From Escherichia phage I29, in the sequence record ON286975: a stretch of 64,000 nt of DNA; one strand, given 5' to 3'. Below are positions 39,262-54,040 of this stretch, in pieces. The translations under genes were made by a program, and so were the position numbers. The first letter of the stretch is position 1, and every line of letters begins with the position of its first letter. The notes under the pieces were generated by a model. That model saw only the letters and a list, made by a program, of their open reading frames with translations, made no database searches and was not told the origin of the DNA.

Positions 39262-39388
39262 CACACAATTAGCTGCCCGACTAAAGGGCTGGAAGCACCT
39301 ATAACACATCTTTCAACTAAATTTCCTACCACCACAATCACTTACCTCCCACACATGACTGTTTGCTTGTTTAGTGAGCAGTCATGCC

Positions 39389-39416
39389 TTGACATTCTTG
39401 CCTATCCTGATAAAAT
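39389..39416 (+). promoter_or_regulatory. sigma70-like promoter facing a non-coding region
   Basis: TTGACA-16-TAAAAT just after an 8-bp-stem hairpin (catgactg...cagtcatg); no convincing ORF downstream. Confidence 0.45.
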
Positions 39417-39894
39417 TAAGTTCTTCTCTTTTCTTTTACCGAGTAATTCGGGTTTTCTGTTCTCTTCGGTTTGAAGGGGTATGGAGATACACCTGAGTGA
39501 ACAGGGTGAACAACCGAACATTTGGCTATGGCATTAGCATGGCGAAGCGGACGGGTGACGAAAGAGGGGCCGGAGGACACCAGTCACTGCCATATGATAT
39601 ATGGGTGATAACCTGAAGAGTCTGAATAAGTGTTTAAGTACCAGTCAGAGGAAAAGGTGAATGGTAGCCGAAGGGGGAGGGGGGTTTCTTGTATCTTTAA
39701 TTTGTATATTATGTATACACTCGTAAACCAATCTCATCTGAATCTGTTTACCACACAAAGTAGATAGGGACAAATATCACCTATTAAACTTGAATTATTT
39801 ATAGAAAATACCACAACACCACTTAAGTCTTTGATTTTACACACAAATTCTACAGATATTCAACCTCCATATTTAACATACTTGTAACATATTC

Positions 39895-40440
39895 CATACT
39901 CTACCTGTCTGATCAATTTCCCCAACCACATCCTCCATATTTTCCCTGTCTGTACTACCCCTGCCCCGCCGTGAGTCCCGTCATATCTGGCTTTCCAGCA
40001 AATATCACACCCACAAATATCATTGCCTGAAGAGGGTTTCATCTCATAATATATGCCTTACCTGAAGAGCGCTTCATACACCACGTAATTTTTTTTTTAA
40101 TTGACCCCCTCCCCGCCGCTGGAGAGGTTGGCTTTTCCCACACAGACCTGAAGAGTCAGCCAGAAATATCTGAACAGGCCCAATTCTACCACGATTTTGA
40201 CCTGACCTACAGGAGTGCTGCCAGGCGGACGAAATGGGAATCATTCTCATTCTTATAACAATTCTCAAATATCGAGGCAGTGAGGCAAATTAATAGGTGA
40301 GGCCGTTCACACAATGGCACAACATTTGCAACCTATCTTGTGGGAGTGAATGAGAATACCTATCATTGTGAGAATAGTTATCATTACGGGCAATTTAACA
40401 TAATACCCATTATGCGCACCGCTGGTGATACATACAGGGA
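39895..40440. repeat. direct repeat copy 1 (546 bp)
   Basis: Identical to 40489-41034 as far as compared; track ORFs inside the two copies translate identically. Confidence 0.85.
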
Positions 40441-40543
40441 AAATATGGAGGATGTGGTTGGGGAAATTGATCAGACAGGTAGAGTATGCATACTCTACCT
40501 GTCTGATCAATTTCCCCAACCACATCCTCCATATTTTCCCTGT
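40434..40543. repeat. 110-bp perfect palindrome at the junction of the two repeat copies
   Basis: 40441-40488 is the exact reverse complement of 40489-40536, and the match extends 7 bp further on each side; centre gtatg|catac. Confidence 0.85.
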
Positions 40544-41034
40544 CTGTACTACCCCTGCCCCGCCGTGAGTCCCGTCATATCTGGCTTTCCAGCAAATATC
40601 ACACCCACAAATATCATTGCCTGAAGAGGGTTTCATCTCATAATATATGCCTTACCTGAAGAGCGCTTCATACACCACGTAATTTTTTTTTTAATTGACC
40701 CCCTCCCCGCCGCTGGAGAGGTTGGCTTTTCCCACACAGACCTGAAGAGTCAGCCAGAAATATCTGAACAGGCCCAATTCTACCACGATTTTGACCTGAC
40801 CTACAGGAGTGCTGCCAGGCGGACGAAATGGGAATCATTCTCATTCTTATAACAATTCTCAAATATCGAGGCAGTGAGGCAAATTAATAGGTGAGGCCGT
40901 TCACACAATGGCACAACATTTGCAACCTATCTTGTGGGAGTGAATGAGAATACCTATCATTGTGAGAATAGTTATCATTACGGGCAATTTAACATAATAC
41001 CCATTATGCGCACCGCTGGTGATACATACAGGGA
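40489..41034. repeat. direct repeat copy 2 (546 bp)
   Basis: Period 594 bp relative to copy 1. Confidence 0.85.
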
Positions 41035-41325
41035 TTGATAACATGAGTTACAGTTTACACACATAACAATTATATTTCTTACTATTTGTGTGGGATATAG
41101 TTAGCAACCAATAGATTAGATATTGACCTGTAGACTTCCAACCGTCTAGACGTCTAAACGCCCACACAACAAGGCTTATACATACACAACTGAATGTAAA
41201 CAGGGCCGCAAAAATGCTACCATACCAGATTGTAAATTTTCATGCAGCACTTGACAAAGAGGAGAAAAACTTGTCTGACATAATGGTGACACTGAACATA
41301 ATTGACATGCCTGACTGTTTACGCT

Positions 41326-43533: not shown

Positions 43534-43747
43534 GGCGTTTTCCTCTCTTCTGGTTGTGTGGGCACTTTTGCCCTTTCAAGATAAATGTTACCTCACCCCA
43601 TGGCAGATGTCAACGGTTTTTATAGTTCTTATATGACAGGCAGGCCCGGTGATTGTCTCCCCCTGTTCCCAAGTGCCGCCCGTTTAATAAGAATAGCAAA
43701 AGGGGCCGAACAAGTCAACCCCAAAATCAGTACCAAAACACTTTTAT

Positions 43748-52282: not shown

Positions 52283-52480
52283 TTATTTTTTATTAAACCA
52301 GTGGTTGATCTGGCCTTTTGTCAGGGCGCAACGATTAAGCTGTTGCCGGGTATAGCTCTGACCGCGACGGAATTTATAAAGGCCTTGCCCGTTGTTGATG
52401 GTTACGTCCACCTGGCAAACCATTTGATCGGTGACGGCCTGGTAAGTGTTGCGACGTACTTTAATTCCGTAGGCGTTCAT
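52283..52480 (-). CDS. hypothetical protein
   Basis: AGAGAGG RBS. Confidence 0.4.
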   Translation of the reverse strand: MNAYGIKVRRNTYQAVTDQMVCQVDVTINNGQGLYKFRRGQSYTRQQLNRCALTKGQINHWFNKK

Positions 52481-52857
52481 GATTTTTTATCCTCTCTGTT
52501 AATTAGTGTGGTGTTGTTCACCTTGCGAGGATAAGAATAACAGAACTCTCCGAGCTGTCAACCATTAGTTAGAATTATTTTTTGGGAAGAATTCTCCAGC
52601 CGCCGCCCCTGCCAGGTTAACCATCATTTTTCGTACTCTTCTTTATGTTCCAACGCTCCCGCCATAGCCTTTTCAACCAGGGTGATAACTTCAGCGGCGT
52701 TGATCGCTACATTTTCCAGGGGATTATATTACTTTTCATTTTTGTACCTCCTCTTCAATTGTTACCTGCCCTGTAGCATAGGCCTGCCAGGCTGGCCCCG
52801 CCAGGTTGCAACGGTTAGCGCATCAGGTTAGAAAAATTTTTTGAAAAGTGTTGACAG

Positions 52858-53115
52858 CGGCCCCGCCAGGTGGCACAATATACCTATCGAAAGGACGGCA
52901 GGCACCGGTGACGGGGGAGACAACCACCGGGGATGGGCGCTGCATAAAATGAGAACGGTTATCATTATCATTTAAAAATTTATGCAAAAAATCCTTGCTT
53001 TCTTTGTCCTGTGTGATACTATAATAACAAGCCGGGGCAACAGGGGCCGGGAGACAATCACCGGGGGTGCCCGTTATTCTGCAAACGAGAATGATTATCA
53101 TTCAAAATTCTAAAT
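52858..53115 (+). other. two paralogous sRNA-like elements, each with an upstream promoter-like sequence
   Basis: Two ~60-bp imperfectly matching units (gggagacaaCcaccgggg... / gggagacaaTcaccgggg...) each ending in an ...atcattatcatt... / ...attatcattc... A/T stretch; TTGACA and TTGCTT-16-TACTAT upstream; strand assignment uncertain. Confidence 0.3.
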
Positions 53116-53228
53116 GAGAACTCCTCGCATTTAATAAATTTAATTAGCGTGCTAATTACCCTCCGTAACAATTTCCTATAAAACAGTATCCCATAAAATA
53201 TTCCCATATAGAAATTTTAAAAATCCAT

Positions 53229-53395
53229 TTCTGAAAACGAAAAATCGATTTCGTTCCCAAAAATTTCAGGTCGAGCTCCGGAACGATTTCCAGAAAATCC
53301 GATTCAGAAAACGAAAAACAGATCGAGTACTGAGAAATTTATCGAGAAAAATTTTCAGAAAATTCAATCTTTGAAACGAAAAACAGATCGAGTAC
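53229..53395. repeat. three tandem ~60-bp iterons
   Basis: Consensus ttcaGAAAACGAAAAAcaGATCGAGTAC repeated three times. Confidence 0.6.
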
Positions 53396-53640
53396 CCGGA
53401 AAGCTGTACCGCAACCTCAAGATAGTGGTTAGACTATTACCATAAAAAGTCAAGGGTAAGTGGAGGAAGTTCTAGTAGAAGGATGTGAGCATGTGCGGGA
53501 AATCTGTAGTGGTGGTCTGGAATATGGTGCAAACGATAGGATGAGCGATTCAGCTTGTCGCGCCTACTCTGAAAAATCCATTTTAGTTTTCGATCCATTT
53601 TCTGATTTTCTAAGAATTTTAAAATATCTGGTCCGGTGAA

Positions 53641-53677
53641 ATATCAAAAGGAGGAAATCCATTTTAGAAATCCTCCT
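53641..53677 (-). terminator. terminator-like hairpin ending the polymerase-side operon
   Basis: aggagga...tcctcct stem with U-rich tail on the minus strand. Confidence 0.4.
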
Positions 53678-53707
53678 GATCTCTAGCAACCTGATAACTT
53701 AAAAATA

Positions 53708-54040
53708 TCAGGTGCCCAGTTTGTTCTTTCCTTTATACAACCGTAAGGGTATAGTTTTTGTAACAGTCCATCTCCCCAGCCCTTCCCAGTTCCAGTTGTA
53801 GGCATGGTACCCGGTTACGCATGCACTGCTAGAGTGGTCATAGGCATAAGAGAACGCTATACGCACCAAATGGAACCAGTCTTTCCACGGTTGTGGTCCG
53901 TAAGCTTTTCTCCAACACCGACACAAACTAAATGTCTCAAGAATAGGTAGGATAACAAATCCATACACCGCCACCAGAATAGCCAGCGCAATGATTGTCA
54001 GGAATACATACCCTGCAGTTGAAACGATGATCTCTGTCAT
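53708..54040 (-). CDS. membrane protein
   Basis: N-terminal hydrophobic helix. Confidence 0.4.
   Translation of the reverse strand: MTEIIVSTAGYVFLTIIALAILVAVYGFVILPILETFSLCRCWRKAYGPQPWKDWFHLVRIAFSYAYDHSSSACVTGYHAYNWNWEGLGRWTVTKTIPLRLYKGKNKLGT

Follow-up and report, generated by a model that had tools for sequence, protein, structure and literature searches.

What is the function of a nearly gene-free block of 1.2 kb whose neighbouring genes all lie on the minus strand? The block spans positions 52481–53707 of the window, by which we mean the whole 64,000-nt stretch of DNA analysed, and it carries no annotation in the matching record MK962749.1 (Shigella phage CM1, a rV5-like Vequintavirus). 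A preliminary description of the locus had proposed a second replication origin, a cluster of small regulatory RNAs or a transcriptional boundary. All the features that it listed were located where it had placed them and stood above chance level. Our preferred reading, to which we give a probability of about one half, is that the block is the form taken in Vequintavirus by a conserved non-coding control module made up of putative small RNAs, host-Fur operators and a protein-binding repeat array. As judged from its sequence, this control region is situated within the long arm of leftward early genes in rV5-like and phAPEC8-like phages. The features of the locus are as follows.

52534–52561, minus strand: leftward sigma-70 promoter for CM1_00182, TTGACA-16-TATTCT, equivalent to rV5 promoter P195A
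52565–52739, minus strand: decayed small gene, 58 aa in relatives, with a ribosome-binding site GGAGG at 52747–52751
52780–52816, no strand assigned: GC-rich zone with motif GGCCCCGCCAGG, of which more copies lie at 52605 and 52859
52851–52879, plus strand: unit 1 promoter, TTGACA-17-CACAAT, with TG upstream of the -10
52886–52975, plus strand: unit 1, GC-rich, helix CCGGUG/CACCGG around a loop ...GGGGGAGACAAC, core at 52916–52930, followed by Fur-like box 1
52947–52969, no strand assigned: Fur-like box 1, AAATGAGAACGGTTATCATTATC, 16/19 to the Fur consensus (52951–52969), the best in the window
52995–53025, plus strand: unit 2 promoter, TTGCTT followed by an extended -10 TGaTACTAT or an overlapping TATAAT, as read from the sequence
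53031–53110, plus strand: unit 2, outer helix GGGCA/UGCCC, inner helix CCGG/CCGG presenting GAGACAAUCA, core at 53050–53064
53083–53105, no strand assigned: Fur-like box 2, AAACGAGAATGATTATCATTCAA, 15/19 to the Fur consensus (53087–53105), top matrix score in the genome
53112–53132, no strand assigned: degenerate box 3, AAATGAGAACTCCTCGCATTT, 29 bp after box 2
53144–53155, no strand assigned: palindrome TTAGCGTGCTAA, with the perfect form TTAGCATGCTAA in most relatives
53219–53258, plus strand: iteron 1, AAAAATCCATTTCTGAAAACGAAAAATCGATTTCGTTCCC, 93% invariant
53291–53330, plus strand: iteron 2, CAGAAAATCCGATTCAGAAAACGAAAAACAGATCGAGTAC, 93% invariant
53356–53395, plus strand: iteron 3, CAGAAAATTCAATCTTTGAAACGAAAAACAGATCGAGTAC, 70% invariant
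53396–53565, no strand assigned: hypervariable spacer, 38% invariant columns, small indels
53566–53637, no strand assigned: conserved A/T-rich element, motif AAATCCATTTTAG shared with iteron 1 and the terminator loop
53638–53677, minus strand: predicted leftward intrinsic terminator, stem AGGAGGA/TCCTCCT followed by TTTTGATATTT
53689–53713, no strand assigned: second A/T-rich hairpin, ACCTGATA-N9-TATCAGGT, overlapping the CM1_00183 stop codon
43630–43717, minus strand, outside the block: third unit copy, promoter TTGACT-17-TATTCT followed by ACGGGCGGCACUUGGGAACAGGGGGAGACAAUCACCGGGCCUGCCUGU

The preliminary description saw no convincing ORF in the block. This held except for the left 175 bp (52565–52739), which are a frameshifted 58-aa gene. 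In CM1 this gene has lost one nucleotide in a G-run (52719–52722) and another in a T-run near 52627. Among eight aligned Vequintavirus genomes it was intact in four (PMBT16, FV3, L048 and typing phage 5) and disrupted in CM1, L033, L046 and L049. It looks like the only genuine gene in the block, broken in CM1. The GC-rich zone at 52780–52816, where three relatives carry a 48-bp insertion, is possibly a leftward promoter or hairpin serving this gene. The decayed gene at the left edge had been overlooked earlier, as had the likeness of the A/T-rich tails of the units to Fur boxes. The remaining coding candidate is a 92-aa minus-strand ORF (52823–53101) that runs over both units. It is open in CM1 and annotated in FV3, rV5 and several other records, but its variable sites were spread 11/10/14 across the codon positions, which is no codon-position bias, and 18 of the 24 variable codons were non-synonymous. 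One relative has an in-frame stop, and the ORF is missing from other genera. We rejected its coding status for want of any coding signature, and a protein-coding role for the block, through this or other small ORFs, is extremely improbable. No tRNA or tmRNA genes were found in the block. Host mimicry was also dropped, as no complete E. coli genome was similar to the block; the sole long plasmid match was a complete phage genome deposited as a plasmid.

Two predicted tandem sigma-70-type promoters point rightward in the block, each standing before a ~50-nt GC-rich element that presents GAGACAAYCACC and has the core GGAGACAAYCACCGG. A Fur-operator-like palindrome follows at most ~25 nt behind each element, and the third, degenerate box comes next. 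The preliminary description had reported two related units behind promoter-like sequences, and both the promoter-like sequences and the relationship were confirmed: the units have a common 21-nt core with 90% identity and a 33-nt tail with 73% identity. The predicted unit 1 promoter matches the consensus at 10 of 12 positions, plus the TG, and has a single variable column in the 8-genome alignment. Across six genera the promoter hexamers are kept at the homologous position, with divergent spacers. The core GGAGACAATCACCGG with up to three mismatches had five matches in the window against 1.06 expected, and with up to two mismatches it occurred only three times in the whole 139.6-kb genome. The third copy, outside the block, is followed by a second promoter (rV5 P168) and a gene (43533–43261). 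Copies in an unrelated contig (L039) also occupy a leader position upstream of genes and end in T-runs. The position of these copies in gene leaders suggests that the element works without help from the repeats, either upon its own transcript or as that transcript.

We examined the units for signs of selection on RNA structure. Unit 2 continues beyond its core with a hairpin UUAUUCUG...GAAUGAU, which leads into Fur-like box 2. In relative L046 the unit 1 helix reads CUGGUG/CACUGG, a double transition that produces two G-U pairs. In the CM1-type unit, which we call unit B, G-U pairs occurred in 10 of 13 sequences at two pairs, and the G-U-preserving changes in the units favour the plus strand. 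With a hand-specified structure on the 13-sequence alignment of unit B, 80.6% of cells were paired compared with 31–42% in slid controls, while double changes under the same structure were no commoner than in shuffles. Folding z-scores of single unit sequences were modest (+1 to -3). MAFFT followed by RNAalifold on 17 unit-B copies returned no structure, because loop indels throw the 5' strands out of register. The first unit in the other genera is a different RNA (unit A), which is absent from CM1 and contains a covariation-supported pseudoknot. In unit A, 8 of 12 pairs were changed on both sides, and its covariation of 0.264, pseudoknot helix included, compared with 0.085 in shuffles and was reached by none of 500 shuffles.

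No plus-strand hairpin with a T-run was found between 52880 and 53700, that is, no intrinsic terminator to mark the 3' ends of the proposed RNAs. The Rfam check that had been recommended assigned no family: with Rfam 15, neither the block nor any of four homologous loci had a meaningful match at the gathering or the permissive threshold, and the output held only chance-level eukaryotic snoRNA and thermometer matches far under threshold. An IMG/VR scan for GCGAGACAAACACCG recovered mainly chance matches in protein-coding sequence and only one or two new members. Literature searches turned up no transcriptome of any Vequintavirinae phage. Of the three alternatives offered in the preliminary description, a cluster of small regulatory RNAs is nevertheless the best supported on sequence grounds: the kept promoters, the conserved units, the G-U bias and the covariation in unit A speak for it, whereas the double changes in unit B stay at shuffle level and a plus-strand terminator is missing. 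Some readings judged by eye were dropped because they were not conserved or did not fit in spacing, namely the resemblance of GGCCCCGCCAGG to a CRISPR repeat, unit 2 as a G-quadruplex and TTGCTT as a MotA box.

The '...atcatt...' stretches noted earlier behind the GC elements proved to be 7-1-7 palindromes, with 16/19 and 15/19 positions in agreement with the Fur consensus. The proven Fur sites of the ent-fep region score 15–16/19, level with the phage boxes, and a shuffled window gave 0.05 expected matches at 16/19. The dyad reads TGAGAAT-G-ATTCTCA in relatives and cGAGAAT-G-ATTATCA in CM1 box 2; the deviations from the Fur consensus are symmetrical, at positions 4 and 12. We built a weight matrix from phage boxes only and ran it on 26 kb of E. 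coli DNA. The top four sites all fell in the intergenic regions fepA-fes, fepD-entS and fepB-entC, which hold known Fur operators, and none of 300 column-permuted matrices put at least four of the top five sites in ent-fep regions. Bacterial plasmids carry a copy of box 2, identical at 27 of 28 nt, after the -10 of a Peripla_BP_2 binding-protein gene and before its start codon. On this specificity of sequence, the boxes are putative host Fur operators. They consistently read GAGAAT...ATTCTC and not GATAAT...ATTATC, and they might conceivably be targets of a different protein with Fur-like specificity. The exact box sequence is common to unrelated phages, which favours a conserved host protein over co-evolving phage repressors.

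Strong boxes in the CM1 genome were confined to its two non-coding blocks. In T5-like terminal repeats the boxes form arrays, at 2–4 places each in 542 phage records, and they also occurred in 70 IMG/VR stretches from many unrelated contigs, some of them directly behind a promoter in an operator position. The 29-bp box spacing is found in the arrays of other genera as well, and the TTAGC-NN-GCTAA palindrome adjoins boxes in a T5-like phage too. In many genera the distance of boxes 1 and 2 from the RNA element is constant. However, relative L012 has the unit and the iterons with no box, which shows that the modules are separable. A minus-strand promoter overlapped by the Fur-like sequence (TTGAAT-18-CAGAAT) was considered by eye and not proposed, since its -10 position 2 varies between A, T and G among genera. 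Literature searches turned up no paper describing Fur boxes for either T5-like or rV5-like phages.

Downstream of the boxes, the three tandem repeats of the preliminary description were present and could be refined to ~40-bp bipartite direct repeats with spacings of 72 and 65 bp. The iteron zone has 32.8% G+C compared with 42.7% for the window. Tandem Repeats Finder, the check suggested earlier, missed the iterons because the spacers between them differ. Each of five genera has three iterons, 63–78 bp apart; number and spacing are kept across genera while the sequence drifts with the genus. The hypervariable spacer contained no conserved ORF or structure in the 8-genome alignment. Both A/T-rich hairpins described earlier were found. 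The one at 53649–53677 is nearly invariant in 8 genomes and is followed by a minus-strand T-run, which identifies it as a leftward terminator, predicted to end the transcript of CM1_00183 and upstream genes; our terminator scan omitted it because of its 15-nt loop. The second hairpin sits in a segment with two alleles among relatives. At the opposite edge, the sequence of the CM1_00182 promoter is identical to one listed in Table S4 of the rV5 paper (PMC3606486). The terminator, which faces leftward transcription coming into the block, and the promoters that restart it leftward close the block between them.

The units were the most conserved part of the block, with 86–93% invariant columns (unit 2: 93%) in eight Vequintaviruses, compared with 54–81% for the flanking genes. 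Unit 2 was conserved at the DNA level in 235 phage records from several genera, always in unannotated DNA, and its 3' two thirds retained 80–94% identity in distant genera. The layout of promoter, one or more RNA units, Fur-like boxes and three iterons also occurs in Seunavirus, Mydovirus, Certrevirus, Henunavirus and Phapecoctavirus, and the same layout was found in PVP-SE1, BIS47, DU_PP_I, Hena1, Schickermooser, ABPH49 and AV124. Seunavirus and Mydovirus have a third promoter that is also directed into the repeats.

We consider it an even call that the block works as a rightward transcription module set against the leftward neighbour genes. Short non-coding RNAs would be made from both promoters soon after infection. 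Fe-Fur bound at the boxes, at about +55 to +100 from the starts, would limit transcript extension by what we infer to be a roadblock. How far transcription reads through into the repeats would then vary with iron status, or with the titration of Fur as phage DNA accumulates. The repeats would be a binding platform for a phage-encoded protein, and the repeat-protein complex may form a transcription-activated replication origin or another nucleoprotein assembly. More tentatively, and with the odds against it, we suggest that unrelated large virulent enterobacterial phages (T5-like, rV5-like, phAPEC8-like and many metagenomic ones) have near-perfect Fur operator arrays in common, placed in gene-free control regions, so that the host iron regulator would serve the phage for sensing, for timing or as a brake, relieved by titration, on non-coding transcription early in infection. 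The arrays of rV5-like phages would be wired to two undescribed small-RNA families (the unit A pseudoknot and the unit B GAGACAAYCACC loop) and to an iteron array that is perhaps an origin.

The block could instead be a replication origin as such, at which a phage initiator binds the iterons, the A/T-rich DNA unwinds and the tandem promoters supply activating or priming transcripts. We regard this as possible but doubtful. Just downstream of two promoters, a zone of 33% G+C holds three conserved direct repeats, into which the third promoter of Seunavirus and Mydovirus also runs, and the T7 primary origin likewise has tandem promoters before an A/T-rich region. Most genera have a palindromic repeat core (TCGATCGA), the form that a DNA-binding protein acting as a dimer would be expected to recognise, and the phage has the replisome genes of a family-A polymerase and a DnaB/gp4-type helicase-primase (also noted in the rV5 paper, PMC3606486). 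These points permit the second origin of the preliminary description and go no further. Cumulative GC skew has its extremes at ~66 and 104 kb, at switches of transcription direction, with no inflection at the block (117.7–118.9 kb), and the rV5 authors likewise saw no skew inflection (PMC3606486); the test is weak, because the skew is dominated by transcription direction. DnaA boxes are absent (no TTWTNCACA on either strand in 52400–53800). There is no adjacent initiator-like gene, and Pfam and PHROG assign neither replication nor DNA binding to any flanking protein: the right-hand neighbour is an HNH-AP2 homing endonuclease in three genera, and the CM1 neighbours are small proteins with no assigned function. 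The 40-bp size and 65–75-bp spacing are unlike classical 17–22-bp iterons, and the third unit copy has no repeats beside it.

Other explanations take the parts of the block separately. The Fur-like boxes may mainly be decoys or sensors that, in both non-coding blocks, titrate host Fur as the phage DNA increases, and so de-repress iron uptake or Fur-controlled phage promoters, or that read host iron, with the RNA units and repeats as separate functions sharing a gene-free region. The restriction of the boxes to two CM1 blocks, the arrays of identical boxes in T5-like terminal repeats and the 70 IMG/VR stretches are in keeping with such a role. T5, however, degrades host DNA early, which makes the de-repression of host genes pointless there, and the fixed distance between box and RNA element suggests functional coupling, not mere co-location; we consider the decoy explanation unlikely. 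A transcriptional boundary, as raised in the preliminary description, is consistent with the leftward terminator (53677→53638), the leftward restart promoters at 52561 and possibly near 52815, and surrounding genes that are all on the minus strand. If the block were only that, one leftward operon would end at the terminator, the next would start at the promoters, the rightward promoters would insulate by antisense transcription or collision, and the repeats would have no function. For such a boundary, two structured units that are 90% invariant would be superfluous, as would three operators and three iterons that five genera keep in number and spacing. Moreover, the spacer, which a pure boundary could tolerate, is indeed hypervariable, unlike the units and iterons, and there is little to recommend the boundary as the whole explanation. 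A packaging (pac) site or physical genome end is highly improbable. A few database records begin 0.2–4 kb from the block, but their start points do not coincide, the terminase gene is ~58 kb distant in the record, and PhiTE and PVP-SE1 have been reported to be terminally redundant and circularly permuted (PMC3475682). The control module of small RNAs, operators and repeats is the reading that we keep.

The locus matters because phage therapy and biocontrol collections make wide use of rV5-like phages. No other non-coding DNA in the genus is as conserved as the block, which the rV5 map had shown as a grey box without explanation. Should the boxes bind Fur, it would follow that a set of strictly lytic phages, the classical T5 group among them, tie their early programme to the iron status of the host through a shared host operator; the searchable literature held no report of lytic phages doing so via Fur. 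The two RNA units, which are not in Rfam, are concrete candidates for phage small RNAs, and the iteron array offers a candidate origin that can be tested.

We compared the block with known systems. On the map of rV5 (Kropinski et al., 2013, PMC3606486), the same locus is drawn as a 'non-coding' box, free of ORFs and between the predicted leftward promoters P195 and P195A. That paper marks the region without description and lists no plus-strand promoters, RNA units, boxes or repeats (PMC3606486). The closest parallel in T5 is Repeat Region 3 in the left terminal repeat, a candidate injection-stop region that is also large, highly conserved and untranslated (Davison, bioRxiv 10.1101/866236). Both loci have arrays of AAATGAGAATSATTMTCATTT boxes and TTAGC-NN-GCTAA palindromes followed by direct repeats. 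The AAATGAGAATSATTMTCATTT boxes are probably the DRC/pal elements of Davison, whose paper does not mention Fur (bioRxiv 10.1101/866236), and if they bind Fur these unexplained T5 repeats gain a concrete candidate ligand. On the other hand, the T5 region has paired DnaA boxes and nine copies of another repeat (GTGCAAATCCGACA in the T5-like locus examined), whereas CM1 has no DnaA boxes. The T5 region also lies in a terminal repeat and has neither unit A nor unit B, while the relatives of CM1 are circularly permuted.

Compared with enterobacterial Fur operators (the 19-bp GATAATGATAATCATTATC; 7-1-7 TGATAATNATTATCA), the phage boxes match at 15–16/19 positions, have the same dyad and likewise form arrays of adjacent sites. 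They differ in preferring G/C at dyad positions 4 and 12 (TGAGAAT-N-ATTCTCA), in lying 29 bp apart where Fur operator arrays overlap by 6 bp, and in standing ~55–100 nt downstream of the predicted starts in CM1 and not over the promoter. The block resembles the T7 primary origin, lambda ori and P1 oriR in its tandem promoters into an A/T-rich region, its direct repeats with a dyad core and a T7-type replisome. In contrast to T7 and iteron origins, its promoters are those of host RNA polymerase, its 40-bp repeats are 65–75 bp apart, and it has no linked initiator and no skew signal. The pseudo-ToxI locus of PhiTE (Blower et al., 2012, PMC3475682) is likewise a non-coding, repeat-containing RNA locus in a rV5-like phage. 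We rejected identity with it, as DU_PP_I has its ToxI-like repeats at 143.7 kb and its homologous block at 73.9–74.8 kb, ~70 kb apart, and the CM1 block contains no tandem 36-nt ToxI-like repeats. In HK022, the put-type leader RNAs are short structured elements that immediately follow early promoters. The L039 copies and the third copy of CM1 resemble put in lying in gene leaders, whereas the units of the block point away from all genes.

The conserved non-coding block at about 52500-53700 is most likely a control module of separable parts: units that resemble small RNAs, each behind a sigma-70 promoter, putative operators of the Fur type, three putative protein-binding repeats, and a terminator with a restart boundary. 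Its anatomy and conservation were established from sequence and comparison. Shigella phage CM1 (MK962749.1), an rV5-like Vequintavirus, matched the 1.9 kb around the block at 99.9% identity, with window position equal to MK962749.1 position minus 65214. No feature is annotated at 52481-53707 in MK962749.1, and the block is flanked by minus-strand CM1_00182 and CM1_00183 within a long arm of small leftward genes. In the rV5 genome paper the region is a grey box with the label 'non-coding'; it 'contained no ORFs', and the paper describes it no further. For this region its promoter table gives only the leftward promoters P195 and P195A, in the left flank (PMC3606486). The preliminary description had reported a 1.2-kb gap with paired units, repeats and hairpins; this observation was confirmed and its interpretation was partly supported.

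A search of E. coli genomes found nothing similar to the block in any of them. One complete Vequintavirus genome, with 95.9% identity over the units, has been filed as pRHB39-C03_2 (CP057073.1; 137,565 bp), a circular 'plasmid' of RHB39-C03, an E. coli isolate cultured from cattle; the deposit points to a carrier state, to pseudolysogeny or to phage DNA that was co-purified.

A conserved gene did appear after frameshift correction, but for about 175 bp only and not over the units or repeats, since the block has one genuine small gene at its left edge (52565-52739, minus strand, GGAGG ribosome-binding site) and the longer ORF proved non-coding. Four relatives carry the left-edge gene as a 58-aa ORF. 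CM1 and three further genomes have a disrupted version, which in CM1 results from two single-base deletions in homopolymer runs. The 92-aa minus-strand ORF over both units, annotated in FV3 and other records, was not under coding selection: in the eight-genome alignment its variable sites fell 11/10/14 by codon position, the amino acid was altered in 18 of 24 variable codons, and one genome had an in-frame stop. A small rightward gene (60 aa, Pfam DUF7170, PHROG 4653; L003 1097-1279 and L004 1073-1258, plus strand) was seen in the homologous block of Seunavirus and Mydovirus, behind its own promoter and upstream of unit A, a different RNA of other genera. CM1 has no DUF7170 counterpart, and its decayed small gene lies on the opposite strand and is unrelated.

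Two related units (unit 1, about 52886-52975; unit 2, about 53031-53110), each with a promoter-like sequence upstream, were present as first described; they are 90% identical over a 21-nt core and 73% identical over a 33-nt tail. Allowing up to 3 mismatches, the core GGAGACAATCACCGG gave 5 hits in the window against 1.06 expected; with up to 2 mismatches it occurred 3 times in the complete 139.6-kb genome, as units 1 and 2 and a third copy with its own promoter upstream and a second promoter and gene downstream. The three repeats (iterons 1-3) were also found, refined to units of about 40 bp starting at 53219, 53291 and 53356, as were both hairpins. The first hairpin is followed on the minus strand by TTTTGATATTT, and is therefore a leftward terminator. 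The located elements were as follows.

52851-52879, plus strand: promoter of unit 1, TTGACA-17-CACAAT (promoter scan)
52995-53025, plus strand: promoter of unit 2, TTGCTT, then TG-n-TACTAT or an overlapping TATAAT (read from sequence)
53649-53677, minus strand: leftward terminator, first hairpin then TTTTGATATTT (sequence)
43646-43660, minus strand: third copy of the core (genome-wide core search, up to 2 mismatches)

The proposed transcriptional boundary stood to the extent that the module holds a leftward terminator and restart promoters, but the block also holds units, putative operators and repeats. A GC-rich motif, GGCCCCGCCAGG or its complement, occurred 5-7 times against 1.3 expected (window 52605, 52794, 52859, 45715 and 46202), in the unit 1 promoter spacer, near the leftward promoter zone and in a terminator-like hairpin running from 45726 to 45700. 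GC-rich spacers of the GGCCC/GGGCC type were common in early promoters of all related genera.

Conservation within the genus was measured as the fraction of invariant columns per segment in eight Vequintavirus genomes, 86-93.5% identical to CM1 over the block.

Unit 1 and promoter: 0.86
Unit 2 and boxes 2-3 (Fur-like palindromes): 0.93
Iterons 1, 2 and 3: 0.93, 0.93 and 0.70
Right-hand A/T-rich element and terminator: 0.80
Spacer 53396-53565: 0.38
Flanking coding DNA: 0.54-0.81

Judged by these fractions, constraint on the non-coding elements exceeds that on the neighbouring genes. The 3' two thirds of unit 2 was found at 80-94% identity in 235 phage records, in unannotated DNA in every case, with hosts including Salmonella, Klebsiella, Pectobacterium, Erwinia, Cronobacter, Enterobacter and Acinetobacter. 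Homologous gaps in PVP-SE1, BIS47, DU_PP_I, Hena1, Schickermooser, ABPH49, AV124 and several IMG/VR contigs had one layout, in this order.

Promoter with a GC-rich spacer
Unit A
A/T-rich stretch of TGTAAAGA type
Promoter
Unit B, to which units 1 and 2 of CM1 are homologous
One to five boxes of AAATGAGAATGATTCTCATTT type, often exactly 29 bp apart
Third promoter, in some genera
Three bipartite repeats ending CGATCGAGAMC

The repeats numbered three in each of five genera, with a spacing of 63-78 bp. In Vequintavirus a second, diverged unit B has taken the place of unit A. In one metagenomic phage (IMGVR_UViG_3300026472_000003; L012 4920-5530) a homing-endonuclease-like ORF was inserted after the first ~20 nt of unit B, with a complete second unit B and its own promoter downstream; here the unit is not followed by a Fur-like box, and the iterons are five and closely spaced (GAAAAAGCTATCGAGACC).

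The suggestion of a small-RNA cluster held in part, with retained promoters, plus-strand G-U pairs and covariation in unit A of the homologous block on one side, and a plus strand of the block without a terminator on the other. Promoter hexamers were retained across genera despite differing spacers. Single-sequence folding repeatedly gave the units an outer and an inner helix with GAGACAAWCA in the loop; the helix sequences varied between copies and genera. Many pairs were G-U; if the opposite strand were the RNA, these would become A-C mismatches. In one relative the helix CCGGUG/CACCGG had become CUGGUG/CACUGG. Pairing in a 13-sequence alignment of unit B was 80.6% against 31-42% in slid controls, with two-sided changes no commoner than in shuffles, and the folding z-scores of CM1-type units were modest. 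In unit A, both sides had changed in 8 of 12 tested pairs, and the covariation score was 0.264 against 0.085 in shuffles (0 of 500 reached 0.264), including a pseudoknot helix, with pairs switching among C-G, A-U, G-C and U-A. Unit A of other genera is thus clearly a structured RNA, and its covariation shows that in a block homologous to that of CM1 the plus strand encodes RNA; we infer that RNA is produced at the CM1 block as well. The proposed comparison with Rfam returned no family for unit A or unit B (Rfam 15).

In an unrelated, smaller phage contig of 46.8 kb (IMGVR_UViG_3300027123_000194; L035, L039) the GGAGACAAWCACCGGGG element recurred as at least four short copies. Every copy stood a few bases downstream of a TATAAT promoter and had a T-run at its end, and the three copies read in context (L039) were all in a gene leader. 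The positions of these copies and of the third CM1 copy suggest that the element acts on, or as, its own transcript.

Unit A, an RNA of about 90 nt served by a promoter of its own, directly precedes unit B in Seunavirus, Mydovirus, Certrevirus, Henunavirus and Phapecoctavirus (L003 1338-1427 in PVP-SE1; also L004, L005, L006, L008, L120-L122 and others), and is absent from CM1. It is built of a hairpin, a loop-to-downstream pseudoknot (CCCC:GGGG, CCAA:UUGG, CCAG:CUGG, CCAU:AUGG) and a variable hairpin, with an invariant 3' segment, AAGGUKGAUCGCCGGUAG. A shorter unit A with a terminator occurred in unrelated 116-139-kb contigs (L009, L017, L022, L026).

Against GATAATGATAATCATTATC, box 1 (52947-52969) matched at 16/19, the best match in the window with 0.05 such hits expected by chance, and box 2 (53083-53105) at 15/19; proven operators of the E. 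coli ent-fep cluster have the same consensus scores. A weight matrix built from 25 phage boxes only was scanned over 26 kb of E. coli K-12 (entD to cstA), and its four best distinct sites all fell in the fepA-fes, fepD-entS and fepB-entC intergenic regions, 2.8% of the sequence scanned. None of 300 column-permuted matrices of the same composition placed at least 4 of the top five sites there (mean 0.69). On Lysinibacillus and Stenotrophomonas plasmids, a gene for a Peripla_BP_2 binding protein has, in the interval from its -10 to its start codon, a sequence identical to box 2 at 27/28 positions. The exact 20-mer box was found in 70 IMG/VR stretches drawn from many unrelated contigs, where it formed arrays, stood immediately behind a promoter or adjoined DnaA boxes. 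That phages without common descent share one identical site suggests a conserved protein of the host as ligand, for which Fur is the obvious candidate and would bind at the block; the symmetric GAGAAT/ATTCTC preference leaves room for another protein of similar specificity. No report of Fur boxes in such phages was found in the literature searched.

The box AAATGAGAATGATT(C/A)TCATTC was present in exact form in many unrelated metagenomic viral contigs (L133, L139, L149, L169, L171, L177 and others), for example as a triple array at 30-bp spacing (L139), in a mixed array at 25-bp spacing (L149), adjoining two TTATCCACA DnaA boxes (L133), or in operator position directly after a TTGACA-17-TATGAT-type promoter (L169, L171, L177). 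The palindrome TTAGC-NN-GCTAA, which no protein is known to bind, comes after the Fur-like boxes both in Vequintavirus (window 53144-53155; as TTAGCATGCTAA in most of the genomes) and in a T5-like phage (L007 770-835; TTAGCCTGCTAA, TTAGCGCGCTAA). Apart from those in this block, the CM1 genome had strong boxes in a single place, its other large non-coding block (window 40.2-41.0 kb; 40232, 40348, 40366, 40826, 40942 and 40960). That second unannotated block (39289-41070) lies where the rightward and leftward arms converge and where the cumulative GC skew reaches its maximum (about 104-105 kb in MK962749.1), with a direct repeat of at least 300 nt at a 594-bp period (39895/40489) and a 2x65-nt palindrome (40424-40553) that is 95% complementary. 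CM1_00155 (40550-40840), a gene annotated within this duplication, may be spurious.

The most likely mechanism would begin with early rightward non-coding transcription; Fur bound just downstream would limit read-through into the repeat array, and the array would assemble a phage nucleoprotein complex, possibly an origin. That the block is itself a replication origin, as also offered in the preliminary description, is possible, at rather less than even odds. In its favour, the three conserved repeats have a dyad core and stand in DNA of 33% G+C, with the tandem promoters upstream, and the phage encodes a gp4-type helicase-primase along with a family-A polymerase. Against it, the block has no DnaA boxes; no initiator-like gene adjoins it, and the right-hand gene in three genera is an HNH-AP2 homing endonuclease; and cumulative GC skew, with extremes near 66 and 104 kb, shows no inflection at the block, in agreement with the rV5 paper. 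A genome end was rejected because relatives are circularly permuted and record starts near the block do not coincide. The pseudo-ToxI RNA locus of PhiTE was likewise set aside, as it lies elsewhere in Certrevirus genomes. ToxI-like 36-nt repeats (type III antitoxin mimics) matched 200 phage records, most of them Klebsiella phages, with others in Salmonella, Escherichia, Pectobacterium and Vibrio phages, far above the single PhiTE case of 2012.

The control module can be set beside known phage regions. The HNH endonuclease gene (PHROG 953; weak AP2-domain match) directly adjoins the homologous block on its right in PVP-SE1 (L003 2093-2680), DU_PP_I (L005 2113-2706) and Hena1 (L006 2068-2634). 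The same boxes occurred within the terminal repeats of T5-like phages (542 records), in a region whose published account names it Repeat Region 3, lists 'DRC' repeats and palindromes in it and does not mention Fur (bioRxiv 10.1101/866236). Repeat Region 3 is like the CM1 block in its arrays of these boxes, and T5 likewise has an HNH gene, between its repeat regions.
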